In this document: one piece after another, positions 20,704-29,574 of the stretch | How the letters are laid out: every line of letters starts with the position of its first letter | Position numbering within the stretch: position 1 is the stretch's first letter | Source of the DNA: Planctomycetota bacterium | Lineage (GTDB): Bacteria; Planctomycetota; UBA1135; UBA2386 | Assembly (NCBI GenBank): GCA_965228735.1 | Contig: OZ245838.1 | Location: 4,960,001-5,024,000, forward strand | DNA: 64,000 bases | Reading direction: 5' to 3' | The notes under the pieces: generated by a model | Databases searched by the model: none | What the model saw: the letters and a program-made list of their open reading frames with translations, nothing else | What the model was told of the DNA's origin: nothing | Position numbers and translations under genes: made by a program

Positions 20704-22386
<1,683 letters not shown>

Positions 22387-22440
22387 GGTGGGGATACTCC
22401 GGGGGAATGTTGGGTTGGGTTCGCGAGCGAGCCGGTGGGA

Positions 22441-22746
22441 CTAGTCGATCACGGCGAGGATCTCGTCCTCACCGAGAATGAGCAGGTCGTCGCCGTCGAG
22501 CTTGATCTCCGAGCCCGCGTAGGACGAGAACAGCACGCGGTCCTTCTTCTTGACCGTCATCGCCTGGCGCGAACCGTTGTCGAGCATGCGGCCGGCGCCG
22601 ACGGCGACGACGATGCCTTCCTTCGGCTTCTCCTTCGCGGTGTCGGGCAGGATGATGCCGCCCTTGGTCTTCTCGTCGGCTTCGACGCGCTTCACGAGGA
22701 CCCGATCGCCGAGGGGGGTAACGGTCGCGGACTTGGTCTTGGACAT
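22441..22746 (-). CDS. groS: Co-chaperonin GroES
   Basis: [23 protein letters not shown]; immediately upstream of groL. Confidence 0.98.
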
Positions 22747-22831
22747 TGCTTTGCGTGTGGTTCGGCCAGGCACTGGCTGGCTGCGGGGAATGGTTGTTGA
22801 GACGGAAAGGGAGACCGAGAGCGCGCGCGGG

Positions 22832-23329
22832 TTACGGGCCGCGCGGCGGCTGCTGCGGTGAAGAGGGGAAGTTCGGCCGGCCCAACTGGGAGCCCGGCAA
22901 CTGGGAGCCCGGCAGCTGGCCGCCGGGCAATTGGGGCGGCAACATGGTGAGCGGGCCACCGAAGTGCGTGCGGATCAGCTGCTCGACCGTGCGGCGCAGC
23001 TGGCCGAGCTCGAGCGGCTTGCGCAAGAACGCGAAGAAGCCGGCCGAGCGGGCGGCCATCGCCTCTTCGGACGACGCCAGGCCCGACATCAGGATCGCCG
23101 GCAGCGGCCGCACGCTGGCAAACTGGTGGAACAGCTCGAGGCCGGTCGCGCCGGGCAGATGGAAGTCGAGGATCGAGAAGTCGAACCGCTGCCGATAGAC
23201 CAGGTTCATCGCTTCGTCCGCGGCGCTGGTGGCCGCGACCGCCCAGCCCTCGGAGGCCAGGAACTCGCTGAGACAGACTCGCAGCGAGTCGTCGTCTTCT
23301 ACCAGCAGGATGCGGAACGTCTGAGCCAT
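22832..23329 (-). CDS. Stand-alone response regulator receiver protein with Pro/Gln-rich tail
   Basis: [24 protein letters not shown]. Confidence 0.9.
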
Positions 23330-23582: not shown

Positions 23583-23918
23583 TCAGCGCGCCTCGTCGTC
23601 GTCCCCGTCCCCGTCCTCGTCCCCGTCGTCGTCGAGGTCGTCGTCCATGTCGTCGTCGAAGTCGTCGTCGTCGTCATCGACGTCGTCCAGGTCCGCTTCG
23701 TCGTCGCCGTCGTCGCCGTCTTCCCAATCGTCGTCGTCCTCGTCCTCGTCGATGTCGCCGTCGTCGTCCTCGTACGACGCCAGGATCCGGTCCCAGTCCG
23801 CCACCTCGATGGTGCTGTTGCAGACCATGCAGACACTGTCGTTGTCACGTAGGTCCTCGAGCTCTTCGAGGTCCCGGTAGACCTTGCCGCATTCTCGGCA
23901 CTTGACGATCTTGCCCAT
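23583..23918 (-). CDS. Small zinc-ribbon protein with a long Asp/Glu tail
   Basis: CRECG...CMVC followed by about 60 mostly D/E residues. Confidence 0.75.
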   Translation of the reverse strand: MGKIVKCRECGKVYRDLEELEDLRDNDSVCMVCNSTIEVADWDRILASYEDDDGDIDEDEDDDDWEDGDDGDDEADLDDVDDDDDDFDDDMDDDLDDDGDEDGDGDDDEAR

Positions 23919-24051
23919 GGTTCGGTGGTTTCGTTGGGGGTTGGGTGGGTTCCCGGGAGGGACGACCGCGATGTCTACCGGCTCGCCCGGGCAAGGCAAT
24001 GCCCGGCCGCGTTTCTTTTGGCCCGGCGCCCGATTCGCCGATAGGACCCGC

Positions 24052-24582
24052 GTGTCCAAGTCTCCGGTGATCGTAGGCGCGATCGGGCTGGCTGGCTGCG
24101 TCGCCCTGAGCTTCATGATGCGCTCGGCCCTGTCGGTGCAGCAGCAGCGTCAGCGCGACCCCCTCGCCGACGAACTCGAGGCCCGCTTCGGCCGTCGCCT
24201 CGACGGCCCGGTCGAGGTCGGTCGCCGGCTCGTCGACGGCAAGAACCGGCTGGTGATCCAGTTGCGGGTGCATGCCGGCCTGCGCAAGTCGCGCTTCGTC
24301 AAGCCCGCTGGCATCACGGCATGGAACCGCAAGCTCGGCGCCGGGGAACTCCCCGACGAGATCGAGGTCGAGGTGGTCACGCTCGAGCCGCGGGAGACGG
24401 TGAGCCGGCTCGTCGACCCGCCGTGGCCGACGCAACCCGGGTCGTCGGAGCCGTGGTTCGAGCCCCCGAAGGTGGACCCGGGCAAGGCCGAGGACGACCC
24501 CGAGGGCAAGGCCGGCGAGGTGAAAGGCGCCGCGGACGAGAACGCGCCGGCGGCACGGCCCGCCGGGTCACCCGCCAAGTAG
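24052..24582 (+). CDS. Hypothetical membrane-anchored protein
   Basis: GTG start, N-terminal hydrophobic helix, GC3-rich codons. Confidence 0.6.
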   Translation: MSKSPVIVGAIGLAGCVALSFMMRSALSVQQQRQRDPLADELEARFGRRLDGPVEVGRRLVDGKNRLVIQLRVHAGLRKSRFVKPAGITAWNRKLGAGELPDEIEVEVVTLEPRETVSRLVDPPWPTQPGSSEPWFEPPKVDPGKAEDDPEGKAGEVKGAADENAPAARPAGSPAK

Positions 24583-24609: not shown

Positions 24610-25647
24610 TCAGTTCGAGACGCCGAGCTTCTTCGCAGTGGCCTCGAGTTCTTCGAGGGTCTTCTGCGCGTTGGTGATCGCCTCCTCGAGGCGGCCACGC
24701 ATCTGCTCGTTGTCCTTGTAGCGCGGCCGGTAGCCCTCGAGCATCTCGACGCGTTCCTTGCGGCTCTCGTGGACGCGCGCGTACGCGTACTTGAACGCGT
24801 CACTGTCGTTGTGCTCCTGCGCGGCCTCGATCAGCATCTCGTCGACGAACGCCTGTGGGCTCGACTCGGCCGGCAGGCGCTTGCCCGCCTGGAACGCGGC
24901 GTAGACCTTGCCGCGCGCTTCGGCCATGTCCTCTTCGGACACGCCGCGGCGCTGCACCGACTTCTGCACCTCGCCCATCTCGATGATGAACGCGTTCTGC
25001 ATGGCCGTCTTCTTGGCGTCGCCCTTCAGGCCGAGACGCTCGATCTCGGCGTAGGCCTCGGCCGCCTCGATCTCACCGAGGTCGATCCGCGCCATGAGGT
25101 AGGCCTGCTCGTCGTAGTCCTTGCCGGCCTCCTTGAGCTTGTCGAGCTTGGCGAACGCGCCCGCGGCGGTCACGTAGCGCTTCATCGACGGCAGGTCGCG
25201 CGGCACGCTCTTGGTGAGCGCGTCACCGCTGCTGTCGAGCACGGCGAGCGACGGGAAGCCGCGGAAGCCGTAGGTGCGCAGCAGATCGTCGTCCTCGCGG
25301 CCTTCGATCTTGGTCATGACCGCGGCGAACGGAATCGCGTTGTCCTTGACCCAGCTCTGGAAGTCGTCGGTGGAGAACACCCGGTTCTCCAGGGCGATGC
25401 ACGGCGGTCAAGGGGAGTACGTGCGCGTGAAGTACGCGAAGATCGGCTTGCCGGTCTGCTCGGCTTGCGCCTTCGCGGCGGCGAAGTCCGTGATCCAGGC
25501 ACCACCAGTGAACCACTGGTGTTCCTGCATCGCGGCGTAGTTCGCCTTCATCTTGTCCTGGTCGTAGGTGCGCTGCGCCGCGAGCTCGGGCGCCATGAGC
25601 GCGAGCACCGGGGCGAGCGCCAGGGCGCTGGGAATCAGTCTCGTCAT
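24610..25647 (-). CDS. Exported thioredoxin-fold selenoprotein (UxxC), 345 aa, Sec at residue 80
   Basis: ORFs 25408-25647 and 24610-25380 are in frame. Read-through gives WITDFAAAKAQAEQTGKPIFAYFTRTYSP-U-PPC-IALENRVFST...YGFRGFPSLAVLD; signal peptide; hairpin follows the TGA. Confidence 0.88.
25371..25391 (-). promoter_or_regulatory. Candidate bacterial SECIS element
   Basis: mRNA UGGAGAAC-CGGGU-GUUCUCCA: perfect 8-bp stem, G-rich loop, starting 16 nt after the UGA. Confidence 0.7.
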
Positions 25648-25872
25648 TTGGGTTCGATTCTGCTGACGTGTCGGTTGGGGATCGCGCGGAACGGACCGCG
25701 CGTCGGGACTTGCTACGCGAGACTAGGGCGCAGGTGCCTGGCTCATAGGCGTGGATCGGGGCTGGTCTATACCTGTTACAAACCAGGCGCCCGGCCCCGG
25801 GCGAACCCGCCGATGGCATCGAACCCTCGGCCCGGTCTTGGGGTTATCCACGGTGAGAGCCGATGTTCGAGC

Positions 25873-27576
25873 ATGGTCGAGGCCATCGTCTACGCCTTCG
25901 CGATCGCCGATGGGCTCGAGCCCGTGGTGGGGGCGGCGCCATACGACGTGCTGTCACGGCAACTTCCGCGCCTGCTCGTCGTGCGGCTCAACGACGACGG
26001 GGATCGCGGCGCGCGCTTCTTCCCGCTGCTCGGCACCGCCGGCGGCAAGCGCGGCTTCCTGCGGTTGACGACGCCGTTCGACCCGGCCCAGCTCATCGCG
26101 CTGCACAAGCAGCAGGACGTGCGGTACGTCTGCGATGGCTGGCTGCGCGCCGGCGAACTGACCTTTCGCTGTCTCGACGGCAGCACCGGCAAGGTGCTGC
26201 GCGAACTGACGCTGCCGTTCGACCCGCGCACGCCGACGGCCGTGCTCGCGCGGCTGCAGTTCGAGCTCATGGACCTGCTCGGCTGGAGCGGGCGACCGAC
26301 GCCGGAGCTGCCGTTCGACGGCGAGCTGCTCGGGTGGTTCCTGATCCTCAAGGACACGGTGTTGCGACTCGAGGCCGGGCTCGACGCCGACGTGGAACAC
26401 GCGGTGCGGGCCGCAGAGCGTTGCTTCGAACTCGACGGCGGCAACCTCGAGATCGTCGACGTCGTGACCGACGTCGCGGCCCACGTTCTCAAGCAGCGCG
26501 AGCATCGCGACTCGATCGCCGCGATGCTGCGGCCGCTCGTCGACAGCAACGAGCTGCCGGCCGACCGGTTCGAGCGGCTCGGTGCGCTGCTGCTGGCCGC
26601 CGGTGACGAACGGTCCGCCGCGACCGCGACGCTGCGCGCGGCGCGTTCGGCGATCGAGCGCGAGGAGCTCGTGGAGCGCTGCGTCGGGTTGCTCTTTCGC
26701 CTCGAGCGCTACGAAGAAGCGGCCGACCTCGTCGAGCTCGCGCGCGAGCGTGGCACCGCGAGCGTCACCGCGCTCGCGCAATACGCCGCGTGCTGCGATC
26801 GCCTCGGTCGCGCCGAGCTCCGCACCGAGCTCTGCGACGAGATGCTCGCGGTGCACGACCTGCCGGTGACCGTCGCGCGCCTGCTCGTCTCGTTCTTGCT
26901 CGAGGACGATCGCGCCGAGCGCGCACGTGCCGTTGCCGAACGCGCGCTAGCAGTCGACCCGACGCAGTCGGTGATGCATCTCGAGCTCGGGCGCGCATGC
27001 CTCGACCTCGACGACAGCGAGCACGCGGCGGCGGCGCTGACCCAGGCGCTGGAGCGCGGCCTGCCGCCCGAGCACGAACACCGCGCGCGCCGGCTCCTGC
27101 GTCTCGCGTCGCAGCCCGGACTGTGGCGCGACGCGCAGAACGTCGAGACCGCGCTCGCGGAGGACGATCTCGACCGCGCGTTCCGTTCGGCGGTGCAGCT
27201 CGCCAAGAACTGGCGCCACTTCGCGGAGGCGTGGTTCCTCGTCGGGCTCGTGCGTCACAAGCGCGGCGAGGACCAGCGCGCCGAGTGCGCTCTGCGCCGC
27301 GCGATCCGCCTCGACGACGCCTTGCCCGACGCGCACAACCGCCTCGGCATCCTGCTCGTCGGCAAGGGCCGGGTCGAAGCCGGTCTCGAGCACCTCGAAC
27401 GCGCCCACGCGCTCGCGCCGACCGAACCGTCGCCGATGCTCCACCTCGCCCAGGGCCTGGCCGCAGCCGGCCGCCACGACGAAGCCCGCCGCTTCATCGA
27501 CCTCGCCGCCCAGAACGGCGCCGAACCCGGCCTCATCGCCGCCGTCCGCCGCGAGATCGAACCGACCCGCCGCTGA
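25873..27576 (+). CDS. Tetratricopeptide repeat protein
   Basis: C-terminal TPR motifs (AEAWFLVG, PDAHNRLG, A.ALAP). Confidence 0.8.
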   Translation: MVEAIVYAFAIADGLEPVVGAAPYDVLSRQLPRLLVVRLNDDGDRGARFFPLLGTAGGKRGFLRLTTPFDPAQLIALHKQQDVRYVCDGWLRAGELTFRCLDGSTGKVLRELTLPFDPRTPTAVLARLQFELMDLLGWSGRPTPELPFDGELLGWFLILKDTVLRLEAGLDADVEHAVRAAERCFELDGGNLEIVDVVTDVAAHVLKQREHRDSIAAMLRPLVDSNELPADRFERLGALLLAAGDERSAATATLRAARSAIEREELVERCVGLLFRLERYEEAADLVELARERGTASVTALAQYAACCDRLGRAELRTELCDEMLAVHDLPVTVARLLVSFLLEDDRAERARAVAERALAVDPTQSVMHLELGRACLDLDDSEHAAAALTQALERGLPPEHEHRARRLLRLASQPGLWRDAQNVETALAEDDLDRAFRSAVQLAKNWRHFAEAWFLVGLVRHKRGEDQRAECALRRAIRLDDALPDAHNRLGILLVGKGRVEAGLEHLERAHALAPTEPSPMLHLAQGLAAAGRHDEARRFIDLAAQNGAEPGLIAAVRREIEPTRR

Positions 27577-27721: not shown

Positions 27722-28921
27722 ATGAGCCTCGACGACCGCCTGCTGTCCTACCGCGACCGTTTTCCGATCCTGGAACGGAGCAACTACCTGATCAACAACT
27801 CGCTCGGGGCCGTGCCGGCCGCGACGCGGGACGAGCTCGGGCAGTTCTTCGACGAATGGCAGACGCGCGGCGTGCGGTCGTGGGGTGACGGCTGGTGGAC
27901 GATGCAAGAACGCGTCGGTGACACGATCGCGTCGGTCCTCGGCATGCCGGCCGGCACCGTGTCGATGCACCAGAACATCGCGGTCGCGCTCGAGATGATC
28001 CTCTCGTGCTTCCGCTTCGACGGTCCGCGCAACGGCATCGTCTACTCGGCGCTCAACTTCCCGAGCGATCAGTACATCTACGAAGCCCGCGAACGCCGCG
28101 GCGCGCGGCTCGTGCGCACGCCCGCGAGTGCGGACGGACTCGTGACCGATGCAAACGCGATGATCGACGCGATCGACGACACGACGCTGCTCGTCGCGAT
28201 CGATCACGTGATGTTCCGCAGCTCGGCGATCGTCGACGTCGCGCCGATCGTCGAACGTGCGCGCAAGGTCGGCGCGTTCGTCATCCTCGACGTCTTTCAT
28301 TCGGTCGGCACTGTGCCGCTGCGGCTGCACGATCTCGGCGTGCACGCCGTCGTCGGCGGCGCGCTCAAGTGGATGTGCGGCGGCCCGGGCAACTGCTTCC
28401 TCGCCGTCCACCCCGACGAGATCGCGGGGCTCGAACCGACGTTCACCGGCTGGGCCGCGCACCGCGACCCGTTCGCGTTCTCGCCCAACGGGCAGGAGTA
28501 TCGCGACGACGGCGGGCGGTTCTTCACCGGCACGCCCAACGTGCCCGCGCTCTACGCCGGCAAGGCCGGCATCGAACTCGTCGCGGATGTCACGGTCGAT
28601 GCGATCCGCGAACGCAGCCAGCGCCTCACGACGAAGCTCGTCGAAGAAGCGCAGAGCGCCGGCCTCGCCCTGCGCTCGCCGGCCGACGCGATGGCGCGTG
28701 GTGGCCACGTCGCACTCGACGTGCCCGACGGCTACGCGGTCTGCCAGGCGCTGAGCGCGCGCGAGATCGTCGTCGACTTCCGCCCCGACGCGGGCCTGCG
28801 CATCGCCCCGCACTTCTACAACACCGAGGCCGAGGTCGTGACCGCCGTGCGCGCGATCCGCGAGATCCTGGACACCAACGAGCACCAACCGTTCCTCACC
28901 GGCGAACGGAGGCCCGGATGA
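27722..28921 (+). CDS. kynU: Kynureninase (class V PLP enzyme)
   Basis: YL.NNSLG, FPSD.Y, D..HS.G, KW.CGGPG, RGGHV, DFRP; coupled to kynB. Confidence 0.8.
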   Translation: MSLDDRLLSYRDRFPILERSNYLINNSLGAVPAATRDELGQFFDEWQTRGVRSWGDGWWTMQERVGDTIASVLGMPAGTVSMHQNIAVALEMILSCFRFDGPRNGIVYSALNFPSDQYIYEARERRGARLVRTPASADGLVTDANAMIDAIDDTTLLVAIDHVMFRSSAIVDVAPIVERARKVGAFVILDVFHSVGTVPLRLHDLGVHAVVGGALKWMCGGPGNCFLAVHPDEIAGLEPTFTGWAAHRDPFAFSPNGQEYRDDGGRFFTGTPNVPALYAGKAGIELVADVTVDAIRERSQRLTTKLVEEAQSAGLALRSPADAMARGGHVALDVPDGYAVCQALSAREIVVDFRPDAGLRIAPHFYNTEAEVVTAVRAIREILDTNEHQPFLTGERRPG

Positions 28922-29574
28922 GCGACCCGTCGTCGAACGGTCGCCGGATCTGGGACATCAGCGAGCCGATCGAACCGAAGACGGCGCCGTTCCCGGGTGA
29001 CACCGCGTTCTCGCAGGAGTGGGTGATGCGCCAGGAGAACGGCGCGTCCTGCAACGTCAGCACGATTCGCATGTCGGTGCACGTCGGCACGCATACGGAT
29101 TCGCCGCTGCACTTCGACGTCGCGGGTCGTGACATCGCCTCGGTGGATCTCACCGCGTACCTCGGCCGCTGCCGCGTCGTCGACGTCGAGGGTGTCGGCG
29201 ATCCGTCGCTGATCCCCGCGAGCGCGATCACGAGTGCCGTGACCGACGGCGCCGAGCGCGTGTTGTTCCGCACGAGCAAGAACCACGACCACACGACGTT
29301 CGACAACGGCTTCACCGCGGTTGGTCCCGAAGCTGCGAAGGCGCTGGTCGCCGCCGGCATCCAGCTCGTTGGCATCGACACGCCGAGCATGGACCACAGC
29401 ACGGCCAAGGAACTCGACGGCCACCTCGTGCTCTACGACGGTGGTGTCGCGATCCTGGAGAACATCGATCTCACCGATGTGCCGGCGGGGGATTACGAGC
29501 TCATCGCGTTGCCGTTGAAGATCGTGGACGGCGACAGCAGCCCGGTGCGCGCGATCCTGCGGGAGTTGGCTTAG
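28918..29574 (+). CDS. kynB: Kynurenine formamidase / cyclase family
   Basis: WDIS, HVGTHTDSPLHF, GIDTPS.D, LIALPLK...D.SPVRA.LR. Confidence 0.88.
   Translation: MSDPSSNGRRIWDISEPIEPKTAPFPGDTAFSQEWVMRQENGASCNVSTIRMSVHVGTHTDSPLHFDVAGRDIASVDLTAYLGRCRVVDVEGVGDPSLIPASAITSAVTDGAERVLFRTSKNHDHTTFDNGFTAVGPEAAKALVAAGIQLVGIDTPSMDHSTAKELDGHLVLYDGGVAILENIDLTDVPAGDYELIALPLKIVDGDSSPVRAILRELA

Follow-up and report, generated by a model that had tools for sequence, protein, structure and literature searches.

Chlamydia DsbH (PDB 2ju5; NF043050) is an exported protein of about 150 aa with a Thioredoxin_7-type fold and a C-M-W-C active site, and the part of PMC5193440 that was available describes it as helping to keep the periplasm reducing. 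Among selenoproteins, thioredoxin-fold chemistry with a UxxC motif is a kind that is already known. For example, the table of PMC13188914, as available, lists generic UxxC thioredoxin-fold rows, including a "Thiol:disulfide interchange protein" row that is defined just by its domain (PF13098), its motif (UxxC) and a representative (WP_011366075.1). Curated models also describe the Trx7/PDZ (NF041199), VPGUxxT type 2 (NF041383) and TsoB (NF045694) selenoproteins, which carry selenocysteine (Sec) near the active site of a thioredoxin-like domain. A thioredoxin domain followed by an all-helical domain is seen in CnoX/YbbN (PDB 3qou, 3qdn), which is cytoplasmic and TPR-based. Finally, the accessible text of Kim et al. 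2016 (PMC4807772) reports the Sec machinery and 13 split-annotated candidates in two Planctomycetes genomes, including two "thiol-disulfide isomerase-like thioredoxins".

In the window, i.e., the whole 64,000-nucleotide stretch of Planctomycetota DNA that was analyzed, a minus-strand gene is predicted to encode an exported thioredoxin-fold selenoprotein whose family and architecture are uncatalogued in the sources available. Its features are as follows.

24610..25647, minus strand: whole gene, 345 aa plus stop, with one TGA read through (translation, homologues)
25576..25647, minus strand: predicted signal peptide, residues 1-24, with cleavage likely after LAA, leaving Gln25 (sequence, hydropathy, low pLDDT)
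25153..25518, minus strand: thioredoxin-fold domain, about residues 44-165, Thioredoxin_7 / DsbH-like (Pfam, model, structure and profile matches)
25408..25410, minus strand: in-frame TGA predicted to encode selenocysteine (U80), which opens the U-P-P-C motif (conservation)
25399..25401, minus strand: Cys83, predicted resolving cysteine and sole Cys of the protein (Cys in 48 of 49 full-length rows)
25371..25391, minus strand: predicted bacterial SECIS hairpin with an 8-bp stem and a 5-nt loop (G second), the loop lying 24 nt after the UGA (folding, covariation)
25252..25254, minus strand: Pro132 in the G-F-P loop, at the cis-Pro position of thioredoxins, with cis geometry suggested by the fold (conservation)
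24613..25152, minus strand: all-helical C-terminal domain, about residues 166-345, with a long helical hairpin at its end (model)

The frame is interrupted solely by the TGA at 25408-25410 (residue 80, in the context FAYFTRTYSP-U-PPC) and closes with a TGA at 24610-24612. The preliminary description had joined the 79-aa and 256-aa ORFs of standard gene calling into one frame split by this codon alone, and had placed U at the first position of a thioredoxin CxxC motif in a 345-aa read-through protein; translation confirms the shared frame, and the codon is indeed U80 of U-P-P-C. In the protein collection, the 256-aa piece is stored as the product of the 24610-25647 gene, and a gene caller can begin this ORF at a GTG at 25380. 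With a dicodon model trained on the genome, both halves score as coding (0.19 and 0.38), relative to -0.36 for the overlapping frame of the opposite strand. On this coding score, a 935-aa opposite-strand ORF was rejected as a real gene over 24610-25647, and its Pfam TPR matches are confined to the portion beyond 25864. A promoter scan found no sigma-70 site, and an Rfam search of the window returned a tRNA and nothing else.

Sequencing error was addressed by aligning contigs from four public runs to the gene. The contigs of two runs are identical to it throughout, and these may be the source of the same DNA. Another contig, assembled in a separate study of a coral metagenome, matches 25344-25724 letter for letter, and a diverged strain shows 33 differences over 1301 letters, of which the 30 listed include none in the TGA codon or the hairpin. 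As both the separate coral contig and the diverged strain keep the TGA, an error at this position was rejected; the TGC or TGT that the preliminary description had proposed looking for is absent from these independent contigs.

Several comparisons place the read-through protein beside DsbH. Pfam Thioredoxin_7 (PF13899) spans residues 50-138 across the TGA with 41.6 bits (cut-off 27), and the profile score, the fold, a UxxC at the start of a helix and the conserved Pro loop together assign the protein to this family. The same Pfam search gave no TPR match in the 345-aa protein. An AlphaFold2 model, built from an 80-row alignment with Cys substituted for Sec (pLDDT 93.7), runs from a disordered signal region through a short helix into a thioredoxin fold and then an all-helical tail. 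Chlamydia DsbH comes first among solved structures in Foldseek and VIA-align, where it aligns over 112 residues with Z 12.9 and rmsd 2.2, and it also leads the profile search of the PDB at E 1.5e-9. The two proteins share the W..D/..A...A...K lead-in and the G-F-P loop; the window protein has U-P-P-C as its motif, carries an additional helix on the N-terminal side and ends in a helical tail of 180 aa, and it scores 29.7 bits against the cut-off of 190 for the DsbH equivalog NF043050. Likewise, a Cys homologue has as its ESM Atlas neighbors "DsbH family" clusters, 313-336 aa long and for the most part from Planctomycetota where the source is known. Pro132 is invariant in the homologue alignment and present in 149 of the 150 best representatives of a large protein library described below. 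Full-length homologues usually begin with a hydrophobic N-terminus (46/49) followed by an x-x-[AG]-Q cleavage-like site (44/49), the signal-peptide calls having been made by a simple hydropathy rule and not by SignalP. The signal peptide, thioredoxin fold, cis-Pro loop and long helical C-terminal domain proposed in the preliminary description are therefore borne out by the homologue N-termini, the model and the invariant proline.

The remaining described systems fit less well. The Trx7/PDZ, VPGUxxT and TsoB models are matched at E 3e-6 to 6e-5, with 22-25 bits against cut-offs of 275-805, and these proteins differ in their motifs (CxxU, VPGU and UxxxxU) and partner domains; no NCBIfam model reaches its cut-off with the window protein. 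The PF13098/UxxC row of PMC13188914 is matched in domain (33.5 bits against a gathering score of 27) and motif, a likeness at the level of description, and Table 1 of that paper (119 families), as available, has no row for this architecture, nor are Planctomycetes mentioned in the available text. The two thioredoxin-like candidates and their companions in PMC4807772, compared by description only and from the accessible part of that paper, differ in having Cys proteins of Singulisphaera as their closest matches and in lacking a detected SECIS. A literature search found no description of the U-P-P-C family, and a word search of the available deep-Sep text and Saltatorellota preprint gave no relevant passage; BSepDB covered planctomycete genomes (752 planctomycete mentions in its genome list, as available), and it may hold members of the family under a generic name. 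As far as these sources extend, the preliminary description, which did not recognize the protein as a characterized bacterial selenoprotein family, has stood up on this point.

The family is widespread among relatives. Of 151 genomes in the same order, 106 contain a match to the read-through protein, with exactly one TGA in 137 of the 150 matches listed and none in the other 13 (72 further matches lie beyond those listed). A single genome can hold as many as 10 copies, and a family profile detected members in 52 of 201 genomes sampled throughout the phylum. One hundred genes were extracted, two of which are of a more distant C-G-W-C type and served as the outgroup. In the remaining 98, the residue-80 column holds TGA in 78, Cys in 12, Ser in 5, Leu in 2 and Asn in 1, shares that do not reflect family frequencies as non-TGA genes were over-sampled on purpose. 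Because the codon is TGA in 78 of the 98 despite this deliberate addition, its conservation goes far beyond chance. In a library of 1.84 billion proteins clustered at 50% identity, 587 representatives match at E<=1e-30; of the best 150, 57 start downstream of the Sec column, as expected of genes cut at the TGA, and among the 93 that span it, Cys is found in 62 and CxxC in 55. The homologue search suggested in the preliminary description has thus returned TGA or Cys at this column. Homologue source names point to Planctomycetota; a search for related loci gave no match with the window protein, and with a relative's protein gave two loci, one of them titled Planctomycetota. Family members frequently occur in tandem pairs (L025, L032, L049, L056, L126, L141, L149), and at L049 a Sec gene adjoins a Ser gene. 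In one genome, a close homologue (L022, G023:C180) is apparently frameshifted right at the active site, and a second contig (L050, G023:C176) ends just past an intact U-P-P-C, possibly an assembly break.

The hairpin lies at +20 to +40 from the UGA (-10.7 kcal/mol) and fits the bacterial SECIS model given in the available text of PMC13188914. In a genome of 69% GC, its single-sequence folding z-score is 0.15-0.59, which is not significant, and a loose SECIS model is passed by 188 of 400 random TGA sites of the genome; since the single-sequence test is this weak, the case rests on covariation. Within the order, and leaving aside one frameshifted gene and one at a contig end, at least seven of the eight pairs are kept in 39/39 TGA genes versus 2/12 Cys/Ser/Asn genes, and the loop reads G[G/U] in 37/39 versus 2/12. 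Both partners of pair 21-39 are third codon positions where the changes are synonymous; 27 genes have G-C there and 12 have C-G, and in none is the pair broken. Overall, 95.8% of pairing cells are paired, relative to 86.4% in shuffles (0/500 reach the observed value) and 38-64% with slid partners, tests that are inflated by the relatedness of the sequences. In more distant genomes, the same stem register is seen in just 18 of 39 TGA genes; the loose model still places a hairpin in each of the 39, in most cases shifted by one base, and with a free register 76 of the 78 TGA genes pass versus 6 of the 20 non-TGA genes. One Ser gene retains the full stem. Taken as a whole, the hairpin very likely behaves like a SECIS element.

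The genome is equipped to use such an element. Profile searches place tRNA-Sec, selA, selB and selD each above the curated cut-off, so that the lack of a Sec machinery, which the preliminary description had offered as grounds for dropping its proposal, does not apply. The selD gene itself contains one TGA, and selA is present in 144 of 151 related genomes, including 62 of 62 near-complete ones. It is worth asking whether the TGA might instead be a true stop, a pseudogene break, or a codon read as Trp, Gly or Cys. The GTG at 25380 would indeed allow the 256-aa ORF to start on its own. Global recoding was rejected, as TGA closes 2280 of 3399 long coding frames, making it the main stop of the genome, and release factor 2 is present. 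A true stop is also hard to reconcile with a TGA, an upstream signal peptide and a hairpin that are all kept across the phylum, and with a hairpin that decays where the codon is Cys or Ser. These alternatives are very improbable, and the TGA at 25408-25410 is almost certainly decoded as Sec, as judged from the conservation of the codon and its hairpin.

As for function, the protein is on balance probably an exported, dithiol-type periplasmic disulfide reductase, with Sec80 as its predicted nucleophile, Cys83 as its resolving residue and DsbD as its electron source. SelB would bind the hairpin and insert Sec at residue 80, a step strongly suggested by the foregoing. The signal peptide would export the protein and be cut before Gln25, and the exported product would presumably be soluble, as it has no second hydrophobic helix. 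By thioredoxin chemistry, the Sec80 selenolate would attack a substrate disulfide or an oxidized cysteine, and Cys83 would resolve the Sec80 adduct as a selenenylsulfide. The single DsbD of the genome would plausibly re-reduce the U-P-P-C protein from cytoplasmic thioredoxin, and the helical tail might conceivably select or hold protein substrates. The DsbD gene (L170; G000:C1:4263182-4265600, minus strand) encodes DsbD_N, a two-Cys membrane part (DsbD_TM) and a thioredoxin gamma domain with U-G-S-C, its N-terminus consisting of two tandem DsbD-alpha-like repeats with one Cys pair each. DsbD is therefore itself a predicted selenoprotein; a TGA is found in 28 of 32 gamma-domain matches in relatives, counted without checking each position singly.

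The same selenoprotein could act differently. As a disulfide isomerase or redox chaperone of the DsbC/DsbG or CnoX/YbbN type, it would bind unfolded exported proteins through its tail, and their cysteines would be shuffled or shielded by Sec80. A thioredoxin domain followed by helices is reminiscent of YbbN (Foldseek ranks 2, 3 and 8), and the presence of up to 10 copies per genome would suit such a role, as would paralogues that lack one or both active-site residues (SxxC, CxxS, SxxS) yet keep Pro132, part of the family perhaps working without redox chemistry. The helical parts fail to superpose on those of CnoX/YbbN, however (rmsd near 20, TM about 0.2). Searched alone, using a single-sequence model (pTM 0.53), the tail has no Foldseek match at E<=0.001, its best hit being a designed three-helix bundle (Z 8.4), an absence that does not show a new fold. 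Moreover, the retention of Cys83 by 48 of 49 full-length rows is in keeping with a dithiol cycle, and we consider an isomerase or chaperone unlikely. Still less probable is a DsbA-like, disulfide-forming oxidase. The protein is predicted to be exported, as such an oxidase would be, and its active-site P-P dipeptide might make the redox potential higher; the model, however, lacks the DsbA helical insert, the nearest structures are of the DsbH and DsbD-gamma types, and no DsbB was found in the genome, which at 93% completeness does not establish its absence (DsbB alone was sought among oxidases). The reductase reading is thus the one that we carry forward.

Many replacements of Sec by Cys or Ser appear to have taken place in genomes that retain selA. 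At least 14 changes of Sec state are required on a 98-row FastTree phylogeny and at least 9 on a 44-row IQ-TREE phylogeny, and in many cases Cys or Ser genes branch beside or within groups of Sec genes at strongly supported nodes; the window gene falls inside an all-Sec clade. A single Sec clade was rejected (AU p 1.7e-130 under LG+G4). Repeated loss of Sec is the simplest reading, albeit on a tree rooted with two outgroup rows and with a poorly resolved backbone. PMC13188914, in the part available, states that the change from Sec to Cys is rare in bacteria.

The window gene has many candidate companions. A scan of the genome for TGA codons with coding signal on both sides yielded 26 sites at a redox or catalytic Cys of a recognizable family, assigned through profile hits and motifs, and 14 further sites, spread over 13 genes, that no family model covers, a group that was partly chosen by its hairpin. 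The scan overlooked at least two others, so that the total of about 40 genes, many of them for predicted exported proteins, is a lower bound. Four other candidates (L058, L061, L078, L091) were rejected as gene junctions.

Among the candidates with thioredoxin-like folds, four TlpA/ResA-like proteins share W-U-[GP]-P-C and have the hairpin at the same place, 31 nt away and with a GGTC loop, and a fifth candidate has U-G-H-C (G000:C1:848558, 3714212, 3976156, 6546711 and 4643014). Two Thioredoxin_7 candidates carry, respectively, U-P-H-C fused to HEAT repeats (L077, G000:C1:4375233) and VPGUxxT in a frame shorter than the family's full length (L093, G000:C1:6694255). Two AhpD-like candidates have C-x-Y-U (G000:C1:4838102 and 1424409, the latter not picked up by the scan). 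Of the less familiar types, four paralogues with G-H-P-L-G-[C/Q]-T-U, mostly signal-bearing, have no Pfam or NCBIfam match (L060, L083, L074 and L085; G000:C1:3484699, 4855623, 6929513 and 7087946); TGA is found in 29 of 30 matches to this family in relatives, and L073 and L075 look like remoter kin. Three FG-GAP repeat proteins have a U-C dyad with a hairpin 19 nt downstream (L076, L081 and L089; G000:C1:3065085, 5872224 and 406817), and one of them has TGA in 23 of 23 matches in relatives. From their sequences, these are predicted to be two uncatalogued exported families; FG-GAP/ASPIC candidates listed in the accessible part of Kim et al. 2016 (PMC4807772) are possibly related to the latter. 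Finally, a signal-bearing 200-aa frame without a family match contains two in-frame TGAs, in G-G-U and L-G-U, with a hairpin downstream of each (L090, G000:C1:1929-2561, minus strand), and two further signal-bearing frames with hairpins, W-L-U-M-C (L079, G000:C1:5150736) and Q-A-U-G-M-C (L092, G000:C1:7165651), have no family match at E<=1e-4.

Gene neighborhood, compared across the window and 21 loci, shows no conservation beyond genus-level synteny, and tandem paralogues are the sole recurring context; context therefore names no substrate or partner. The divergent upstream gene (25864-27576, plus strand) encodes C-terminal TPR repeats and is syntenic within the genus only. On the other side lie a gene for a small protein with two CxxC pairs, a long Asp/Glu-rich tail and no Pfam match (23583-24116, minus strand), which also occurs at the same-genus locus L100, and a groES-groEL pair (20704-22959, minus strand). 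Further upstream is a kynureninase gene followed by what we take to be a kynurenine formamidase-like gene (27722-29574, plus strand).

It is tempting to suggest, if only tentatively, that the window protein is one arm of a selenium-based periplasmic reducing relay in oxygen-respiring Planctomycetota, in which a Sec-containing DsbD would feed many exported Sec oxidoreductases, with about 40 selenoproteins per genome and repeated loss of Sec. The proposed members would be the U-P-P-C family, the four or five TlpA/ResA-like proteins, peroxiredoxins, deiodinase-like proteins and several uncatalogued families. The genome encodes heme-copper oxidase subunits, and the available text of PMC13188914 holds that aerobic bacteria rarely retain selenoproteins, a statement against which such a relay, if real, would run. 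In that case, some 40 selenoproteins per genome would also be near the top of known bacteria (the top ten of BSepDB, as available, have 46-63 selenoprotein genes), in a lineage unmentioned in the accessible part of PMC13188914.

The findings correct the annotation of a large family, whose Sec members are filed as N-terminally truncated hypothetical proteins without signal peptide or active site. The coexistence of Sec and Cys/Ser paralogues in genomes that keep selA also amounts to a natural experiment on the gain and decay of SECIS elements. Finally, a predicted Sec-DsbD and about 40 other candidates suggest that environmental Planctomycetota with heme-copper oxidases use selenium heavily in their cell envelope, and this bears on why and where bacteria use selenium.
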